Shown: in pieces, positions 21,197 through 34,337 of the stretch
How the letters are laid out: each line of letters starts with the position of its first letter
Position numbering within the stretch: the first letter of the stretch is position 1
NCBI GenBank assembly: GCA_965223265.1
Contig: OZ244999.1
Location: 1,216,001 to 1,280,000, forward strand
Source of the DNA: Planctomycetota bacterium
GTDB lineage: Bacteria; Planctomycetota; UBA8108; SXIK01
Length of the DNA: 64,000 nt
Direction: 5' to 3'
The notes under the pieces: generated by a model
What the model saw: the letters and a program-made list of their open reading frames with translations, nothing else
Databases searched by the model: none
What the model was told of the DNA's origin: nothing
Position numbers and translations under genes: made by a program

Positions 21197-21592
21197 AGAT
21201 GATGCCGAACGCGTGGAAACGCAGGGGTGGACGGCGGTTGTAAGTTACCTAACGGGACACGTTCTTCTGCGGGCGTTTTTCGCTTTCCACACAGGTGGGA
21301 GACGTCTTGACCGGCGACGATCAAGATCCCGCGCTTGCGTTCTAATTGGTGTCGATGAGTCGCTGATCTTCGCGCGTCGTTTGGCGGGTTCGGCGCGGCT
21401 TGAGCCGACGGTCTTCCAGCTGACGGTGTCACCGACTCTCACAACCGTCGAGTCGAGCCCGCGCGGGAAAGACGGACGGCGGGATGTCCAAGATCTGAAG
21501 TAGTCGAGCTGGCGACCGCGCGGTAACATTGCGGGAGAAGGCTTTGGTCGGCCTTATGGTTAGGTTTTAACGAGGACAATCGGCGCACTGCT

Positions 21593-24172
21593 ATGTGCGG
21601 AAACTCCTTCTTACGCTTGGCTGTCGGCGTGGGGCTACTGGGATTCTCTGCCCTCGTTCCGAACGTTCAAGCTGACGAGTCCTATGGCCACGCTCCCGGA
21701 ACCGTGCCGTACGACTTCTCGGACAGGTTCTACAGGGCCCACGGCATCGATCCGGCCGGGCTCACCCTCCGCGTGACCGAACGAGGCGGCGGCGCGGGTG
21801 CCGTGATCGAAGGCAAGGCGCCTGATCCAACCCGCAGCAAAGTTCGCATCATCGCCACCAACGGCGGGTTCGACGCCGGTGGCGCGCTTCTTTTCTATCC
21901 GGATCCCCCCGCCTTCATCACGGAGGCCGCCTTCATGGACAACGCTGCGGGGCGTCACGCCCGGCAGCTCGCTGACCAGTTCCGCGCCTACATCTTTCCG
22001 CTGAAGGACGGCGATCCCTTCTCCCCGGCGCCGCCCAACCGTCGCCAGGACAACCTTTTCGATACCGGCCTCGGCTACCTGACTCACAACCCCCTCGGGC
22101 TGTGGACCCTGCAGTTCGTTGAATACACGGACGCAGCGCTCAACGGCGGCACATCCGAGCAGGATGCGCTCATGGCTGAGATGGAGGCCCGCAACGGCCT
22201 TGATCTTGACGGGACACCGGTGATACGGCGCAAGCATGAAGTCTTCGCGCTCGAGGAGGCAGGGCTGATCCATCTGTACACACGTGACAAGGAGACGTTC
22301 GAGAACGGACCGCCATGGGTCGTCTGACCGACTCTCATCGACCCCCGTGAGGGGTCAGTAGCCGCCGACGCGTTCTTGGTCCCGACCATTGATCAAGAGG
22401 TCATTGATAACTTTAACTGCCTGCAGGCGACCGGCGACTTCTGCGACTCGCGGCGCATTGAGTTGCAGCCGTTCGTGATGCAGCTGCCGCGGCTCGTGGA
22501 TGCCGATACCGCGACGGACCGGTTCGGCAACTCGATCCGAGTCGATGCGCTCCCGAACATGCCGTTTTCCAACTCGGGTCGGCCACACCAGCGCTTCGAA
22601 GAGTTTGCTCCGCAGAAGCTCTATGAGGTGCATGTTCGCCCGATGCCGTGGCGGTTTCACCCTGATCTCGCACCGAGCATGATCTGGGGTTACTCCGACT
22701 TGTCGCCTGGACCACTTTACAAGGCACGCTACGGTGCGCCGATCGTTGTGCGTCAGTACAACGACCTCAATCCCGGTGGCGACGGCACTGGTTTCGGTCG
22801 TCCCGAGACGATCACCCACCTGCACAACGCGCACACAGCTTCGGAATCCGACGGTTTTCCTGGCGATTTCTATCCGGGGCTGGAAAGCACAAACACCGAT
22901 GCCGGTCCTGACGCTCTCATGGGAACCGCTGACGACATCGACGTGGGAGCCGTCCACCCCGGTGAGGACTACATCATGGGGAATGAGGACGACTACCTGA
23001 CGGGAGCTGTCGGGGAGTTCCACGACTACCACTACGCAAACGTATTGGCCGGCGGCGATCCGAACGAAGCGCTCAACACGTTGTGGTACCACGATCACCG
23101 CGGCGACTTCACGGCCCAAAACGTCTACAAGGGCCTGATCGGGATGTATCTTCTGTTCGACGAAGTCGATTCCGGTGACGAGACAGATCCCAATCCGAAG
23201 GCACTTCGGCTACCAAGCGGCGACTACGACGTCCCGCTGGTGTTCGGCGACAAGTCGTTCGACGACACGCCCGACCACCAGTTGTTCATGGATGTGTTCA
23301 ACTTCGACGGGTTCCTCGGCAACCACGACACCGTCAACGGCGCCGTCGATCCCTACATGGAGGTCGACCGCCGCAAGTATCGCTTCCGGCTGCTGAACAC
23401 GGGACCGTCGCGATTCTATCAGTTCGTTCTCTCAAACGGTGAGCCGCTGGTGATGGTTGCCAATGACGGCAATCTTCTCAAACACCCGGTCAGAATGGAC
23501 GACGGCGTCAAAATCACCCCAGCTGAGCGCATGGACGTCATCATCGACTTCTCCGACACCGAAATCGGCGACACGATCTACCTGATCAACGTCATGGATC
23601 AGTGGCATGGCGCTGGACCGACTGGAATCGTTCTCGACGTTGACGAGGGCGATCCGGTCCTTGAGTTTCGAGTCACGGGCGACGCCCCGGATCCGAGTCG
23701 AGTGCCGAGAAAGCTTCGTGAACGCACCAAGATTCACGCCAGCGAAGTCGAACGAACGCGGCTGTTCGAGTTCGACAACCAAACGGACGGGTGGACGATC
23801 AACGGTCGACAGTTCGACGCCAATCGGGTCGATGAGGTGGTGCCACTCGGCGCGACGGAGGAATGGACCCTGCGGAACATGGCCGAGGATTGGGATCATC
23901 CCGTTCATATCCATCTCGAGGAGCATCAGATCGTCACGCGCAACGGCAAGAAGCCTCCGCAGCACGAGCGCGGTCGCAAGGATGTGACCGTCATCGGACC
24001 AGGGGAAGAAGTCGTGATCCGGATCAGGATACGCGACTGGACCGGTCGCTATCCGCTGCACTGTCACAACACAGTCCATGAGGATCACGCGATGCTCATT
24101 CGTTGGGACGTTGTCGATTTTGGTGACGGTGAAGACGACGACGGTGAGAGACGAGGAAGACGAAGTCGATGA
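21593..24172 (+). CDS. Candidate selenoprotein: exported multicopper oxidase (bilirubin oxidase/CotA-like) fused to an unknown N-terminal domain; TGA 22325-22327 read as Sec245 (859 aa)
   Basis: ORFs 21593-22327 and 22376-24172 share a frame with a single TGA and an open linker (GPPWVV-U-PTLIDPREGSVAADAFL). A SECIS-like hairpin follows. All four Cu motifs are present: HLH, WYHDH, HPVHIH, HCHNTVHEDHAM. The only signal peptide is on the upstream part. Confidence 0.75.
22340..22356 (+). promoter_or_regulatory. Putative bacterial SECIS element (MCO gene)
   Basis: gacccc-CGTGA-ggggtc; the loop begins 18 nt after the in-frame TGA, with G as its second base. Confidence 0.72.
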
Positions 24173-24948
24173 GCACGACAGAGTCGTTCAGCGTTTCGAG
24201 CTTCCATGTCCGCGTCGCGATGTTCGGGCTTGTGGCACTGCTTGGAACGACGGTAGCGGCACTGTTCTCTTCCTGTACGCGCGTGTCGACAGCCGACAAC
24301 CCGTCGGAGACTTTGGGCGCGACAACTGAACTTGACCCGGCGGCCTACTACGATCCGCCCACTGTCGATGCGAAGCTTCCGAAGACGTTCACCCGCAGCA
24401 GAGCGGCGCCCGACTTTCCCAACGTCACGCTCATCGATCAGGATGGGAAGGAGGTGAAGTTCTACGATGACCTCGTCAAGGACAAGATCGTCGTCATTAA
24501 CTTCATGTTTGCGACCTGCCAGGGGACGTGACCTCTGACCACCGCGAACCTCGTGAAGGTTCGAGACAATTTGGGGGATCGATTCGGTGAAGACTTCTTC
24601 TTCGTATCGATCACGCTCCTTCCCTCAGAGGATTCGCCGGCGGTCCTCCGCCGATTCGCCGAGCGCTACGGGATTCCGGACAAGCCCGGTTGGACCTTCG
24701 TCACGGGTCGCCCGAGAGATATCGAGCTGTTGCGAAAACGTCTCGGCTTTTCCTACGTCGATCGGAAGCTCGATGCCGATCGCACCAATCACATCCGACT
24801 CGTCCTTGTGGGCAACGAACCCTACCGCTGGTGGGGGACGCTTCCTGGCGCGGATATGTCATCGAATCAGATCACGCAGTACCTCAAGTGGATGGACCCC
24901 GGGGTGTCGGGCATGAAGACGCCGCAGACGATCTCCCGGCGAGAGTAG
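24169..24948 (+). CDS. Candidate selenoprotein: SCO1/SenC-family copper chaperone with CxxxU motif; TGA 24529-24531 read as Sec121 (259 aa)
   Basis: FPNVTLIDQDGKEVKFYDDLVKDKIVVINFMFATCQGT-U-PLTTANL continues in frame into SITLLP..DSP..L, GWTFVTG and the His in RTNH. ATGA overlap with the MCO stop. Confidence 0.85.
24545..24563 (+). promoter_or_regulatory. Putative bacterial SECIS element (SCO gene)
   Basis: cgaacct-CGTGA-aggttcg, a perfect 7-bp stem; the loop begins 20 nt after the TGA and is identical to the loop at 22346. Confidence 0.78.
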
Positions 24949-24955
24949 ACGCGTC

Positions 24956-25660
24956 ATGCCTATTCTGATCAACAAAAAGTCCTGGTTGGGAGTGGGAGCG
25001 TTGGCGGCGCTAGCGCTCTGGTTCTGGCTCACTCCGGGTGCCGACCATAGTGAAAGCACCCGCGTGAATGAAGCCGCGCCGGATGCAGCAGGCGCACTGC
25101 GGCACGCAGAATCTGCAGAGAGCACGGTGACGGAGATCGCATCGACCGAGGCGCCGAACGAGCGTGGGAGCGACCCGGCGTGGAATCCCGGGGGCCCGAG
25201 CGAACCCACCGTCGAGGACGTTCAGCAGTGGGGATGGCTCGTGGATGACCTTGACCGGTTGATCGACGAGACCCGCCCCAAGGCACGCAGACGCCTCGAC
25301 GCCGGTGACTTCGCCAGGAAGTACCTACGGGCTAGCCTCGAGTACTTGAAGCTCGACGAAGAGGAAGGAGTGCGATTCGAGACGGCCGTGCGAGAGGGCT
25401 TGAAGGCCATCGAAGAGGCACGAGAAGAAATGCACAACGTTCGAGCGGCGACGGCGTACGAAGAAGCCCAGCCCCGTTCGATTCAGGTGTGGAAGGACAG
25501 CCAGGGTGAGTTCCTAAGACGGCAGAAGGAGGCGGCGCATCGCATCGTCGCATCCCTGCCCGTTCGGCCTCGCACGACTCTGATGCGGGAACAGGCGCTC
25601 AGGTGGATTCTCCGCTGCGACTTCGGAATCCGGCACGCAAGTCGCCCGCCGCGCCTTTAG
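24956..25660 (+). CDS. Hypothetical membrane-anchored helical protein, probable third gene of the MCO-SCO operon
   Basis: Starts 7 bp after the SCO stop; N-terminal TM (WLGVGALAALALWFWL), low-complexity linker, helical C-terminus. Confidence 0.7.
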   Translation: MPILINKKSWLGVGALAALALWFWLTPGADHSESTRVNEAAPDAAGALRHAESAESTVTEIASTEAPNERGSDPAWNPGGPSEPTVEDVQQWGWLVDDLDRLIDETRPKARRRLDAGDFARKYLRASLEYLKLDEEEGVRFETAVREGLKAIEEAREEMHNVRAATAYEEAQPRSIQVWKDSQGEFLRRQKEAAHRIVASLPVRPRTTLMREQALRWILRCDFGIRHASRPPRL

Positions 25661-30512: not shown

Positions 30513-31787
30513 CTACGGCAAGAGCTCTGCGATGGGCCTTGCCGATGCGTCGACCAGCGGCATGGGACGTGCTCCGGGGGCGAGGAATTCCTGCTGGATG
30601 TCGATGCCGAGAGCCGTGCAGATCGTGGCGATGAAGTCGGGTGAAGTGACGGGGCGGTCGACGATTTCCGCTCCAGGGTTCTTGCCTTCGCTCGTCTTGC
30701 CGACGACTTGGCCGGTCCTGATGCCACCGCCCGCCAAGACCGCACTCCAGGCCTTCGAGAAGTGATCCCTTCCTGCGCCGGGCGAACGCCCGAACTCGCC
30801 CATCCAGACAATCAGCGTGTCGTCGAGCATGCCGCGAACCTTGAGGTCGCGGATCAACGTCGCCATGGCGCTATCCATCCAGGGGGCCCTCTGAGCGATG
30901 GGCCCCGCGGCTCCTTCGTGATCGTCCCAGCCGCGGTGCACGACTTCCACGAACGAAACTCCCGTTTCGACCAGTCGCCTGGCGAGCAGACACGATTGGC
31001 CGAACTTGTGATCGCCGTAAGCCTCACGCAGATGGGGAGGTTCGCTGTCCAGGTCAAACGCTTGGGACCTCTTGGACCGCATTAAACGCACCGCTCTATC
31101 GAACGCAGCCTGCTTCGCCCGGACCGCCGGGAGTGCAAATCGCTGTGCGAATCGGTTCTCGCTTTGCAGAAGAAGTTGCAGGCGATTGTCTAAGTCGCGA
31201 CCGGTCGTGGCCAAATTCTCCAGTCCTTTGCGTGGATCATTGACGGCCAGCGGGGCGTGTTGCGGTCCTAAGTACGCCGGCACGCTGCGATAGAGTCGGC
31301 CGCCGTCGTTACGAATGTCCCAGCCTGCGTCGATCGTCACGAAGCCCGGCATGTCCTCGTCTCTAGGTCCGACTTGCGACGAGGCGAGACAACCGATCGC
31401 TGGATGTTCGAACTCCGTTGTTCGTTTGTACCCCGTGTGCAAGAAGTACTTGGCGTCGTAGTGACCGTTGATTTCGGTCGTCATCGATCGCACGATGGCC
31501 ATGTCTTGCATACACCGCGCGAGCTTTGGCAACTGCTCAACAATCTGAATGCCAGGCACTGACGTCGAGATCGTTTTGAACTCACCACCAGGCTTTGGAT
31601 CGAAGGTGTGCTGCTGGCTCGGTCCACCGTCCATCCACAGTAGGATGCATGCCTTCTTCCTGCGCGTCTGCGCAGTGGCCGCATGCGCCAGCGACTCGAA
31701 CCACGGCACGCTACCTCCAGATAAGACCCCTGCGGCGGAGAGTTTGAGCAGATCGCGGCGTTTGATGGTTCGGTCAGAAGTGTTCAT
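30513..31787 (-). CDS. DUF1501-family protein (Tat signal)
   Basis: KRRDLLK, WMDGGPSQQHTFDPK, LLARRLVE, GWDDH, GEFGRSP. Confidence 0.92.
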   Translation of the reverse strand: MNTSDRTIKRRDLLKLSAAGVLSGGSVPWFESLAHAATAQTRRKKACILLWMDGGPSQQHTFDPKPGGEFKTISTSVPGIQIVEQLPKLARCMQDMAIVRSMTTEINGHYDAKYFLHTGYKRTTEFEHPAIGCLASSQVGPRDEDMPGFVTIDAGWDIRNDGGRLYRSVPAYLGPQHAPLAVNDPRKGLENLATTGRDLDNRLQLLLQSENRFAQRFALPAVRAKQAAFDRAVRLMRSKRSQAFDLDSEPPHLREAYGDHKFGQSCLLARRLVETGVSFVEVVHRGWDDHEGAAGPIAQRAPWMDSAMATLIRDLKVRGMLDDTLIVWMGEFGRSPGAGRDHFSKAWSAVLAGGGIRTGQVVGKTSEGKNPGAEIVDRPVTSPDFIATICTALGIDIQQEFLAPGARPMPLVDASARPIAELLP

Positions 31788-31850
31788 TTGATTTCGCTTC
31801 ACTGAGTCGTGTCGGCAGGTCGTCGTCAGCAGTCTTTCCCTGCCCTCGGC

Positions 31851-34337
31851 TCATTGTACCAAAACGTATTCGCTCCGATTCACCAACATCCACAACACTC
31901 CAGTCAGCGCGACCCGATGATCTGACAGCTGGCGAGCGTACTGTATCGCTTCCGCGGCTTCGTTCTCGGTCGGTCGGCGCGAGAGCGTGCTTAGGTACAA
32001 CCACTCAATCGCCTCGGTGAGTGTCGACGCCGTGAGCACAATGTCTTGCGAGCGTGGACTTTTTTCCGATTGATCTGCGCCCCGGCGTGAGGAATCGCTG
32101 ACGCGCGTCCATGCCTTGCCGTCGAGCGAGACCTCGATGCGGTACTGCTGAGGCGACCGATCTTCGTACTTACCTTCGCGGTCGCGACCCCAAACGACGC
32201 GGTTGATCTCCGTCGGAACTGCAAGCTCGATCTGAGCCCAACCACCGCCGACCTCGTTGCTGATCCAGCTGTGCGAGTTACCGTATAGGCCGTCGTTGAG
32301 ATGCGCGATCTGATGGAGGTCGCAACTCGGCAACAGCAGTGACGAGGCGTCTGCCTTCGCTCCGAACGCCGCGAGCGCTATGTTCGTGTCGCTTCCCGGT
32401 GCGTACACCTCCAGTTCGTCAAGGCAGGGCTCGTCGTCCGACTGCCCGACGGTGAAGCGCACAAATTGGGCCTTCACTGCGGGAAAGAAGTCGTCATTGC
32501 GGCGCGAATTGACCGGCGGCAAGCGGACGAAACCGGGAAAGTAGATGGCGTCGAGAGCGCTACTGCCGGCGAGCAAGCGCGGATGATTGATCATGGTCAG
32601 CATTTGCGCGACGCCGTGGGTGAAGTCGGTGGCGTCCTCCTCGTTGGTGCTGAACCTTCGCCGAAACTCCAGGTAGGGATCGGCCACCGCGGCGGACATT
32701 CCCACCGTGACATGTTCCACACTGGTTCGCAGGTCGAGATTCGGATCGCCGTATGCCAGCCTCAACGAGTCGTAGAGCATGTCCGCTGTCATGACGCGGA
32801 GCGGCATCCGGCCAAACCCCGCCGTCAAAGCGTCTCGCGCCTGCTCATCTGTCCCCGGCTCCATCCAGCTCGTTCGCTGATACGCCTCTGAATTGCACAC
32901 GCTTCGGAAGAGATGTTTGACGTCATAGCCGGAGGCGATGAACTCGCCGGTCAACAATTGAAGCAGTCCCGGATGCGATGGCGGGTTCAGCTCGCGAAGG
33001 TCGTCAATTGGATTGACGATTCCTCGAGAGAAGAGGTAGAACCAAACGCGGTTGGCGAACGAGCGCGCGAAATATGGGTTCTCCTTGGCCGTGAGCCAAT
33101 CGACGAACGACCCCCGGAGGTCGTCTTGGTCACTGACGTCAAACCTTTCCCCTCGTGGGAAGGCGGCAGGTACCGTAGTCCCGGCGTTCTTGAAAGCGGA
33201 ATCGGGAATGTTGATTTCTCCGGGCTTCTTGCTGGGTCCCTTGCCGGTTTCGATCTTGCTGAAATCGCCTGCCGCACGGCCGAAGAAGGCGGCCAGCGCC
33301 CAATGGTCTCGCTGCGACCAGTCGCGGTAGGGATCGTCGTGGCACCGTGCACATTGCAGCTGCACGCCCATGAACAGCGAGGCTGCGGCTCGTGCTGATC
33401 CATCCGCAGTCGTTTTGGAGTCTTGGCCGACGAGCCCAAAGAAAATCAACTGAGGCTTGTTCTTGGTCTCACCGTGCGCGGTGAGAATGTCCCGCGTGAT
33501 TCTGCCCCACGGCTGGTCGGCAGTGATCTTCGCGCCGATCCATTTGCCGAAGTCTCTGGCCTGCTGATGCGGCTGTTCTCCAGCGTTTCCCGTCGACGGC
33601 AACTCCGGCGGGCAGATCCAATCGCGCCAGGTTCGGCCAAACTGATCACCGAACGCAGGCATGGCGAGGAGCGAATCGATCAGCTGCGCGCGCTTGTCCG
33701 CGTCGCTCTTGTCGAGAAACTCTGCGGCTTGTCTCGCCGTTGGGACACGTCCTGTCAAATCGAGATAGACGCGGCGCAGAAATTCAGCGTCGCCGCTGCG
33801 CGGTGTCGGCTTCTGGTTTGCCGCAGCCAAGAAGCGGTCGACGTGCTGATCGATCGCCGCTGCGACTTCCTGCGGCATGTGCTTTTCGCCAACCGGCAGC
33901 AAAGGGTCGACGTTTTGATGCTTCTCAGAAACGGTTGGAAGTCCGGCATCGATCCAGGCTTTGATGGTCGCCTTGGCTTCAGTCGAGAGCTTCTCGCGGT
34001 CATCCCCCCAGGGCATCTCGTCGTTGGCAATACGCTTCCAAAGCTCGCTCCTCTCTGCATTGCCAGGCTGGAGGGCGGAGCCAGATTCACCACCAGCGAG
34101 CATGGCTGGGAGGGTGCGCAAATCGAGTCCGGCCTCTTGGTGCAGTCCACCATGACAGCCCATGCAATGCTTCGTGAGGATTGGCAGCACGTCGCGCTCG
34201 AGAAGCGGTTCCTTGGTGAACGCGGCCCGGGGAGCCACGAGCGCACAGAGAACCGTCATCACTTTGGCGGCGATGCCCGCGAGACGGAAGGCGTACATTG
34301 GCAGATGTCGCACGCTCCGGAAGACAACAGATCGCAC
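31851..34337 (-). CDS. Planctomycete cytochrome c / DUF1549 / DUF1553 protein with inserted discoidin (F5/8)-like domain
   Basis: CMGCH, LRRVYLDLTGR, CARCHD, FANRVW...RGIVNP, NPPSHP; insert LNDGLYGNSHSWIS...YRIEVSLDG. The start may be 34298 or 34259. Confidence 0.88.
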   Translation of the reverse strand: MRSVVFRSVRHLPMYAFRLAGIAAKVMTVLCALVAPRAAFTKEPLLERDVLPILTKHCMGCHGGLHQEAGLDLRTLPAMLAGGESGSALQPGNAERSELWKRIANDEMPWGDDREKLSTEAKATIKAWIDAGLPTVSEKHQNVDPLLPVGEKHMPQEVAAAIDQHVDRFLAAANQKPTPRSGDAEFLRRVYLDLTGRVPTARQAAEFLDKSDADKRAQLIDSLLAMPAFGDQFGRTWRDWICPPELPSTGNAGEQPHQQARDFGKWIGAKITADQPWGRITRDILTAHGETKNKPQLIFFGLVGQDSKTTADGSARAAASLFMGVQLQCARCHDDPYRDWSQRDHWALAAFFGRAAGDFSKIETGKGPSKKPGEINIPDSAFKNAGTTVPAAFPRGERFDVSDQDDLRGSFVDWLTAKENPYFARSFANRVWFYLFSRGIVNPIDDLRELNPPSHPGLLQLLTGEFIASGYDVKHLFRSVCNSEAYQRTSWMEPGTDEQARDALTAGFGRMPLRVMTADMLYDSLRLAYGDPNLDLRTSVEHVTVGMSAAVADPYLEFRRRFSTNEEDATDFTHGVAQMLTMINHPRLLAGSSALDAIYFPGFVRLPPVNSRRNDDFFPAVKAQFVRFTVGQSDDEPCLDELEVYAPGSDTNIALAAFGAKADASSLLLPSCDLHQIAHLNDGLYGNSHSWISNEVGGGWAQIELAVPTEINRVVWGRDREGKYEDRSPQQYRIEVSLDGKAWTRVSDSSRRGADQSEKSPRSQDIVLTASTLTEAIEWLYLSTLSRRPTENEAAEAIQYARQLSDHRVALTGVLWMLVNRSEYVLVQ

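Follow-up and report, generated by a model that had tools for sequence, protein, structure and literature searches.

A Probable Selenocysteine-Containing Multicopper Oxidase with an N-Terminal Domain of No Named Family in a Planctomycete Genome

The Locus and Its Reading Frame

We analyzed a 64,000-nucleotide stretch of DNA from a Planctomycetota bacterium (contig OZ244999.1 of assembly GCA_965223265.1, positions 1,216,001 to 1,280,000 of the forward strand), hereafter the window, whose positions are counted from its first letter. It carries a gene on the plus strand in which an N-terminal region of no named family is followed, across an in-frame UGA codon, by a multicopper oxidase. The genome carrying this locus is a single contig of 9.18 Mb with 60.8% G+C. 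Judged from sequence comparison, the UGA, codon 245 of the gene, is very probably decoded as selenocysteine (Sec, U), and the locus is a real feature that has been wrongly split by gene callers. The features of the gene are as follows, all on the plus strand.

21593: ATG start of the open reading frame (ORF), whose in-frame TGA at 22325–22327 is codon 245 (direct sequence reading)
21593–21673: start codon and N-terminal leader, residues 1–27 (direct sequence reading)
21674–22450: N-terminal domain (N-domain), residues 28 to about 286, containing U245, Cys276 and Cys284 (234 homologues; AlphaFold model)
22325–22327: in-frame UGA codon 245, probably read as Sec (TGA in 15 of 15 loci; Cys homologues; Sec machinery)
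22340–22356: hairpin GACCCC-CGUGA-GGGGUC, resembling a selenocysteine insertion sequence (SECIS) and overlapping the codons for D-P-R-E-G-S (same in all 15 Sec-form loci)
22451–24172: linker and three-domain multicopper oxidase of the bilirubin-oxidase/CotA type, including the stop codon (Pfam and PDB sequence matches)
22817–22834, 23084–23098, 23897–23914 and 24059–24094: copper motifs HLHNAH, WYHDH, HPVHIH and HCHNTVHEDHAM, respectively

The residues just before the TGA are ...ENGPPWVV, closing a 244-residue ORF (21593–22327). Past the TGA, the same frame reads PTLIDPREGS... (PTLIDPREGSVAADAFLVPTIDQEVIDNFNCLQATGDFC...) and runs into the multicopper oxidase up to the stop codon TGA at 24170–24172, giving a total of 859 residues. 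The motifs by which the initial annotation had characterized the N-terminal part, namely DFSDRFY, TNGGFD, NRRQDNLFD, NPLGLW, NGLDLDGTP and FNCLQATGDFC, were all found, and its numbering of U245, Cys276 and Cys284 agrees with the codon coordinates (22418–22420 for Cys276 and 22442–22444 for Cys284). As it had also stated, the mature region before U245 is free of cysteine, with none in residues 28–244 and the sole earlier one being Cys2 of the leader.

The leader (MCGNSFLRLAVGVGLLGFSALVPNVQA) had been described as a signal peptide lacking a twin-arginine motif. By eye, it contains one arginine and no RR, and it looks like a signal peptide of the general secretory type. The twin-arginine leader of CueO-type proteins, which are exported by twin-arginine translocation, is absent from the window protein by the same inspection. 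Among the orthologues, the leaders vary (L021, L022, L025 and L020): in one, LTAC resembles a lipobox, and in three others RR stands close to the N-terminus (MSRRTLFAL, MAARRIGL and LQRRARC). The export route may thus vary among lineages. The oxidase part has neither a start nor a leader of its own, as the initial annotation had supposed; past the TGA, no ORF start is available except an internal TTG at 22376, which lies within conserved sequence and is not followed by a hydrophobic leader.

Probable Decoding of the In-Frame UGA Codon

Readable DNA was available for 15 related loci, the window included, and TGA occupies the same aligned position in all 15, TAA or TAG in none, although the count includes near-duplicate contigs (L035/L036/L037 and L033/L034) and the independent lineages are fewer. 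Because the TGA recurs at the same aligned position in every locus, a chance in-frame stop is ruled out. Coding sequence is conserved on both sides of the codon in all 15 loci, with the pattern PWV[VIT]-U-P...DPRxGS. When 401 genomes of the phylum were sampled, a profile of the N-domain matched six, each with a single TGA within the matched region and an open frame of about 800–900 residues. The same TGA is found in G007, among 61 relatives, and in L027, the sole locus from the species-genome collection. Among the metagenome contigs related to P0207, all seven that reach the site have the TGA and then continue in frame into the oxidase; L039, whose contig ends before the UGA site, was excluded from this count.

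Cysteine takes the place of the UGA-encoded residue in the fused homologue P0001 (809 residues; PWVVCPLMHDPRAG / PWVVCPLMHDPRAGS), in the stand-alone protein G012, and in 52 representatives of the family. When the 120 closest clusters at 90% identity were inspected, 117 gene calls ended right after xW[VI][VIT], two went on with cysteine, and one was cut earlier; these are protein calls, in which the stop codons are not visible. The source genome also encodes the machinery for Sec incorporation, with SelA (474 bits), tRNA-Sec (70.3 bits), the SelB wing domain (68 bits), and SelD (309 bits). The homologues include some with Cys at position 245 and some with a TGA followed by the conserved DPRxG, the two forms for which the initial annotation had suggested looking. 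The 15 TGA loci, the Cys homologues, and the Sec machinery together support its reading of the codon as a sense codon, most probably for Sec, that links the N-terminal region of no named family to the oxidase.

The SECIS-Like Hairpin

All 15 loci have a hairpin with a 6-bp stem (GACCC[CU]/GGGGUC) and a loop of 5 nt, the stem beginning 15 nt past the U of the UGA. We refer to it as SECIS-like. Across the 15 loci, the stem varies by one G-U wobble change, and the hairpin is kept even in the AT-richer marine contigs. Seven loci have the loop CGUGC and six have CGUGG; the window has CGUGA, and L027 has CGGGG. In the eight genomic loci, the hairpin codons are CCC for proline (8/8), CGT for arginine (7/8), and GGG for glycine (8/8), the gene-wide use of which is 0.28, 0.13, and 0.20, respectively. 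The hairpin is therefore made of locally rare codons, a choice that peptide conservation does not explain. The single Cys-form locus for which DNA was available reads GAT CCC CGC GAC GGC GTC, which does not form such a hairpin. What speaks for the hairpin is its conservation and its choice of codons rather than its stability.

A crude scan of the same genome found an FdhA-like gene (...CSRAUHAPTVAG..., G000:C1:8400141, plus strand) with an in-frame UGA and a 6-bp hairpin at +15, whose loop, GGUCU, contains GU. The scan also returned a second candidate, ...GCFGGGUGISRF... (G000:C1:4726619, plus strand), with a hairpin at +18.

The N-Terminal Domain

An exhaustive HMMER search with the N-domain found 234 representatives (50% identity) at E ≤ 1e-3. 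Most of these homologues have 260–310 residues and are mostly stand-alone secreted proteins, the match running to residue 258 or so of the query (about 285 in the full-length protein); in 26 representatives, the sequence stops precisely where the UGA lies. The AlphaFold model of the N-domain, built with a 77-row alignment, has a mean predicted local distance difference test score (pLDDT) of 91.9 and a predicted template-modeling score (pTM) of 0.89. It shows a mixed alpha/beta structure whose blocks have pLDDT values of 88–97 through residue 285 or so. In this model, U245 directly follows the strand WVV, Cys276 lies in the last helix, and Cys284 just beyond it. Stand-alone homologues likewise continue past residue 245 through DPRxG...DAFL...FxCLQxxGxxC. 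The initial annotation had let the domain end at PWVV-U, which is at odds with both the confident model and the stand-alone homologues, as these extend to about residue 285. Because the predicted fold continues to about residue 286, U245 is internal to the N-domain.

The domain had been called unfamiliar, and so it proved in every collection that was searched. Pfam gave no family for the 244-residue ORF and, among 77 family members, only dockerin (two proteins) and one weak DUF6117 match; NCBIfam gave no match for six N-domain sequences. A profile search of PDB sequences reached a best E-value of 0.57, Foldseek with the N-domain model found no fold match in the PDB and no thioredoxin-fold match, and an ESM Atlas search with P0005 returned no usable match.

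Eleven polar positions are conserved throughout the family (D41, D44, Y47, N50, R60, R85, R151, Q152, N201, D206, and D259), a pattern that points to a conserved pocket not dependent on residue 245. Some members carry dockerin or ricin-type lectin domains (P0029, P0030, P0098, and P0099). The N-domain family presumably works outside the cell, since these members carry such domains, which also suggest a role on extracellular polymers.

Residue 245 and the Cys276/Cys284 Pair

Among 152 sequences, position 245 is occupied by Cys in 52, by the end of the ORF in 26 (and in the window), by Ala in 23, by Ser in eight, by Gly in five, and by other residues in a few, the remaining 23 being fragments. 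The residues that track Cys or Sec at this position are W171, F163, D153, and G239. Pairs of Sec and Cys forms normally mark reactive residues. The context of U245, PWVVUPTL, shows neither a CxxU nor a UxxC motif and no thioredoxin fold, and there is no cysteine within 30 residues of U245. On our reading, Sec245 would act as a lone reactive residue.

The initial annotation had instead proposed a selenenylsulfide between Sec245 and Cys276 or Cys284, that is, a redox-active U...C pair. Both cysteines are indeed kept in all 15 Sec-form loci and in P0001, and they are always present in the oxidase-fused subfamily; a Sec/Cys redox pair is, moreover, the arrangement in most known selenoproteins according to the motif column of the table in a 2026 review of prokaryotic selenoproteins (PMC13188914). 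In the family, however, Cys276 and Cys284 behave as a pair of their own, both being present in 77 proteins, neither in 19, and one only in seven, independently of residue 245. Of the 50 proteins without Cys at 245, 44 still have both, and 17 of the 53 representatives with Cys or Sec at 245 lack both. Furthermore, Cys245 is the sole cysteine outside the leader in 12 listed proteins, two of them incomplete. The position of Cys276 in a helix and of Cys284 just after it, eight residues apart in the model, also fits a local disulfide. This evidence weakens the selenenylsulfide, which we regard as unlikely, though conceivable in the oxidase-fused subfamily; the Cys276-Cys284 pair looks like a structural disulfide in its own right and not an obligate partner of Sec245.

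The Multicopper Oxidase Part

The oxidase part matches Pfam Cu-oxidase_2 with 75.6 bits (cut-off 20.4) and Cu-oxidase with 25.4 bits (cut-off 21), while Cu-oxidase_3 reaches 20.5, just below its cut-off of 21. Its best PDB sequence match is bilirubin oxidase (1e-60), followed by CotA (1e-49). The copper ligands are all present, namely H409/H411, H500/H502, H769/H772/H774, and H823-C824-H825-H829-M834, in the motifs HxH, HxH, HxxHxH, and HCHxxxHxxxxM, and the oxidase part is accordingly predicted to be active. The acidic tail at its end is short in the window (DFGDGEDDDGE, 24113–24169) and long and Asp/Ser-rich in L027:3953-6625 (...DDDDDSDSDSDSDS...).

In 13 aligned fusions with intact HLHNxH, WYHDH, HPxHxH, and HCHNTVHEDHAM motifs, residue 245 is U (12) or C (1). 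In three other proteins, P0022, P0032, and P0150, the N-domain is joined to cupredoxin domains from which all copper motifs have been lost, and position 245 shows Trp or a gap. Fusion to the oxidase is seen in all Sec forms whose DNA could be read, and the pattern of copper ligands agrees in direction with this observation. An initial search for fused forms found three proteins, and an alignment-based search for longer proteins (754–2150 residues) found nothing, which is weak evidence.

The Neighboring Genes

The oxidase gene is followed by two further genes on the plus strand, with the features listed below.

24169–24948: SCO1/SenC-like gene (Pfam SCO1-SenC, 9.8e-15), whose ATG overlaps the oxidase stop codon (ATGA)
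24529–24531: in-frame UGA of the SCO1-like gene, giving CQGTU (CxxxU)
24546–24562: hairpin GAACCU-CGUGA-AGGUUC in the SCO1-like gene, with the same layout as the hairpin of the oxidase gene
24956–25660: third gene, 234 residues, with an N-terminal hydrophobic segment (tblastn matches downstream of SCO1 in nine related loci)

In all 12 loci with enough flanking sequence, the SCO1(CxxxU) gene follows the Sec-form oxidase gene, and both its TGA and its hairpin are present. The stems of the two hairpins differ in two base pairs, both sides of which are changed. The protein of the third gene has no match in Pfam or NCBIfam, the NCBIfam selenoprotein models gave no match, and no NCBIfam model of any kind matches the SCO1-like protein. 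By sequence, this is a conserved three-gene module headed by the Sec-oxidase gene, followed by SCO1(CxxxU) and a small, presumably membrane-anchored protein, and it appears to be widespread in planctomycete-like and marine uncultured bacteria. Copper loading by SCO1 outside the cytoplasm would fit a leader without a twin-arginine motif; yet the leaders of the orthologues differ.

Upstream, a terminator-like site (21259–21276) separates the selenoprotein gene from a DUF6807 gene, which is not a conserved neighbor in related loci; a promoter scan at the locus found none. Elsewhere in the window, an ORF of 1868 residues (10482–16088, plus strand) contains 11 stretches of FG-GAP repeats and a PPDK_N domain, the ATP-binding domain of pyruvate phosphate dikinase. 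On the minus strand (30513–34337), a DUF1501 gene adjoins a PSCyt1/PSCyt2/PSD1 gene, a pairing typical of planctomycetes.

A Proposed Selenium-Dependent Oxidase and Its Alternatives

We consider it likely, from the sequences and the N-domain model, that the locus encodes one exported selenoprotein of 859 residues, with Sec245 in an N-domain of no named family fused to a copper oxidase, within a module that includes SCO1(CxxxU). SelB would read the hairpin 15 nt downstream of the UGA, and Sec would be inserted at codon 245. The complete protein would then be exported, comprising the leader, the N-domain of about 260 residues, and the bilirubin-oxidase/CotA-type oxidase with its full set of copper ligands; the copper itself would come from the SCO1(CxxxU) partner. 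Insertion of Sec by SelB and delivery of copper by SCO1 are established steps in bacterial Sec decoding and in SCO1 function, respectively. When selenium is lacking, translation would terminate at codon 245, leaving an incomplete and probably unstable N-domain and no oxidase.

What Sec245 does in such a protein can be proposed with less assurance. As a lone selenol, it could serve the oxidase in its active form in one of two ways: it might feed the type-1 copper, acting in redox or in contact with the substrate, or it might be the point at which copper is received. That its role is tied to an active copper oxidase is a tentative but reasonable proposal. A more specific version, in which Sec245, within a domain of unseen fold, works directly with the multicopper center, either relaying electrons or substrate to the type-1 copper or accepting copper from the Sec-bearing SCO1, is conceivable though doubtful. 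If it were true, selenium chemistry would be wired into extracellular oxygen-dependent oxidation and copper trafficking.

Several observations weigh against the reading as a Sec protein whose selenol serves the oxidase. With regard to the hairpin, the loop CGGGG of L027 lacks GU, and the 91 nt surrounding the UGA are no more stably folded than shuffled sequences (z 0.10). The DPRxG peptide under the hairpin is conserved in Cys and Ala forms as well, so that part of the nucleotide conservation reflects protein constraint, and the contrast at the DNA level comes from one Cys-form locus. A search of positions 21400 to 25000 against Rfam at E ≤ 10 produced no relevant match. A loose genome-wide scan for such hairpins was not enriched after TGA, the share with an open frame being 9.7% for TGA and 10.4% for TAG; after a coding filter, 36 TGA and 18 TAG sites were left in a genome where TGA triplets are about three times commoner. 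With regard to residue 245, Ala, Ser, or Gly takes its place in about 40% of the family, Cys245 forms also occur stand-alone or fused to dockerin or ricin-lectin domains, and no His or Met is specifically conserved together with Cys or Sec at 245. The correlation with the copper ligands compares three with 13 sequences, which are related to each other. The full-length model of the Cys-form P0001, built with a 15-row alignment, has a pLDDT of 74.6 and a pTM of 0.64 and is too uncertain for conclusions on domain packing.

A further alternative, in line with the gating by selenium suggested by the initial annotation, is a switch with two functional products, in which scarce selenium yields a 244-residue N-terminal fragment and an ample supply yields the full oxidase. 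Any UGA codon for Sec competes with termination in bacterial Sec decoding, and stand-alone members of the N-domain family do exist, both of which speak for such a switch; gating by selenium supply would, however, hold for any selenoprotein. The stand-alone members have 260–310 residues and include the 40 residues past position 245, and no complete member was verified to end at 245 with another stop codon. The 244-residue product would lose the last 40 residues or so of the modeled domain, including the helix and both cysteines, and is thus unlikely to be functional as the stand-alone protein that, in the initial annotation, termination releases. We therefore consider the two-product switch very unlikely.

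Weakest of all, and improbable in the extreme, is a true stop separating a gene for a 244-residue secreted protein from an oxidase gene starting at the internal TTG at 22376: public gene calls do split the locus in this way (P0154 and 116 others end at the site; P0002 and P0003 begin just past it) and the local fold energy is unremarkable, but amino-acid conservation and the predicted fold extend across the TGA, there are homologues with Cys, a leader is missing from the oxidase part, the Sec machinery is complete, and TGA, never TAA or TAG, recurs in 15 of 15 loci together with the conserved rare-codon hairpin. Conservation of the site across 15 loci led us to reject a sequencing error or pseudogene. 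A reassigned genetic code was rejected too, as TGA terminates the oxidase gene itself and the Sec machinery is present.

The reading as a single exported selenoprotein, if true, would have several consequences. It would bring two additions to the bacterial selenoprotein families, the fusion of the N-domain with a multicopper oxidase and the CxxxU form of SCO1, and the former would be the first multicopper oxidase depending on selenium, as far as our literature searches show. It also brings out a sizeable family of secreted proteins without a named function, whose confident model matches no solved structure. At least 117 close clusters end at the UGA as a result of mis-splitting by gene callers, whereby the oxidase seems leaderless, the N-domain seems a small orphan, and the module becomes mis-annotated as two or three hypothetical genes. 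Position 245 itself would provide a direct handle on what the N-domain does for the oxidase.

Comparison with Known Systems

The selenoprotein literature was compared with the two candidate families. The inventory of 119 prokaryotic selenoprotein families in Table 1 of the 2026 review, as far as it is contained in parts 1–2 of the three parts of section 7, lists no multicopper oxidase, no SCO1/SenC, and no domain resembling the N-domain (PMC13188914). Term searches in the main texts of the same review, a 2022 review, and the GOS, deep-Sep, and BSepDB papers, whose supplementary family lists may name more, turned up nothing of relevance on copper oxidases or SCO1. Literature searches, by title or abstract, found neither a Sec-containing SCO1 nor a Sec-containing multicopper oxidase with an in-frame UGA. 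Within these parts of the literature, the protein would represent a selenoprotein family missing from the published inventory.

The bacterial selenoproteins with Sec/Cys pairs share with our protein the in-frame UGA, a hairpin just downstream, Cys homologues, and the Sec machinery in the genome. Unlike those, U245 is embedded neither in a thioredoxin fold nor in a UxxC or CxxU motif. FdhA is a comparable case of a selenoprotein among the metalloenzymes, and the FdhA-like gene of this genome has its hairpin at the same spacing from the UGA. According to the same part of the review, the Sec of FdhA is a ligand of Mo or W within the catalytic domain (PMC13188914), whereas the Sec considered here would sit in a separate accessory domain without a matched fold.

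Residues from about 300 to 859 resemble the three-domain oxidases of the bilirubin oxidase and CotA type (PDB 2xll and 1gsk), including all four copper-ligand motifs. In contrast to our protein, the known enzymes have neither an N-terminal domain of about 260 residues nor Sec; the window protein moreover has a leader without a twin-arginine motif and a translationally coupled SCO1-type gene. That next gene matches Pfam SCO1-SenC and has its motif in the place usual for the SCO1/SenC chaperones, except that the second cysteine of CxxxC would be replaced by Sec (CxxxU) in 12 of 12 loci. Finally, the copper-less homologues of the FtsP/SufI type offer a counterpart within the same family, as the N-domain in P0022, P0032, and P0150 is linked to cupredoxin domains that have lost all copper ligands. 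Those proteins have neither Cys nor Sec at position 245, whereas the window protein keeps every copper ligand.

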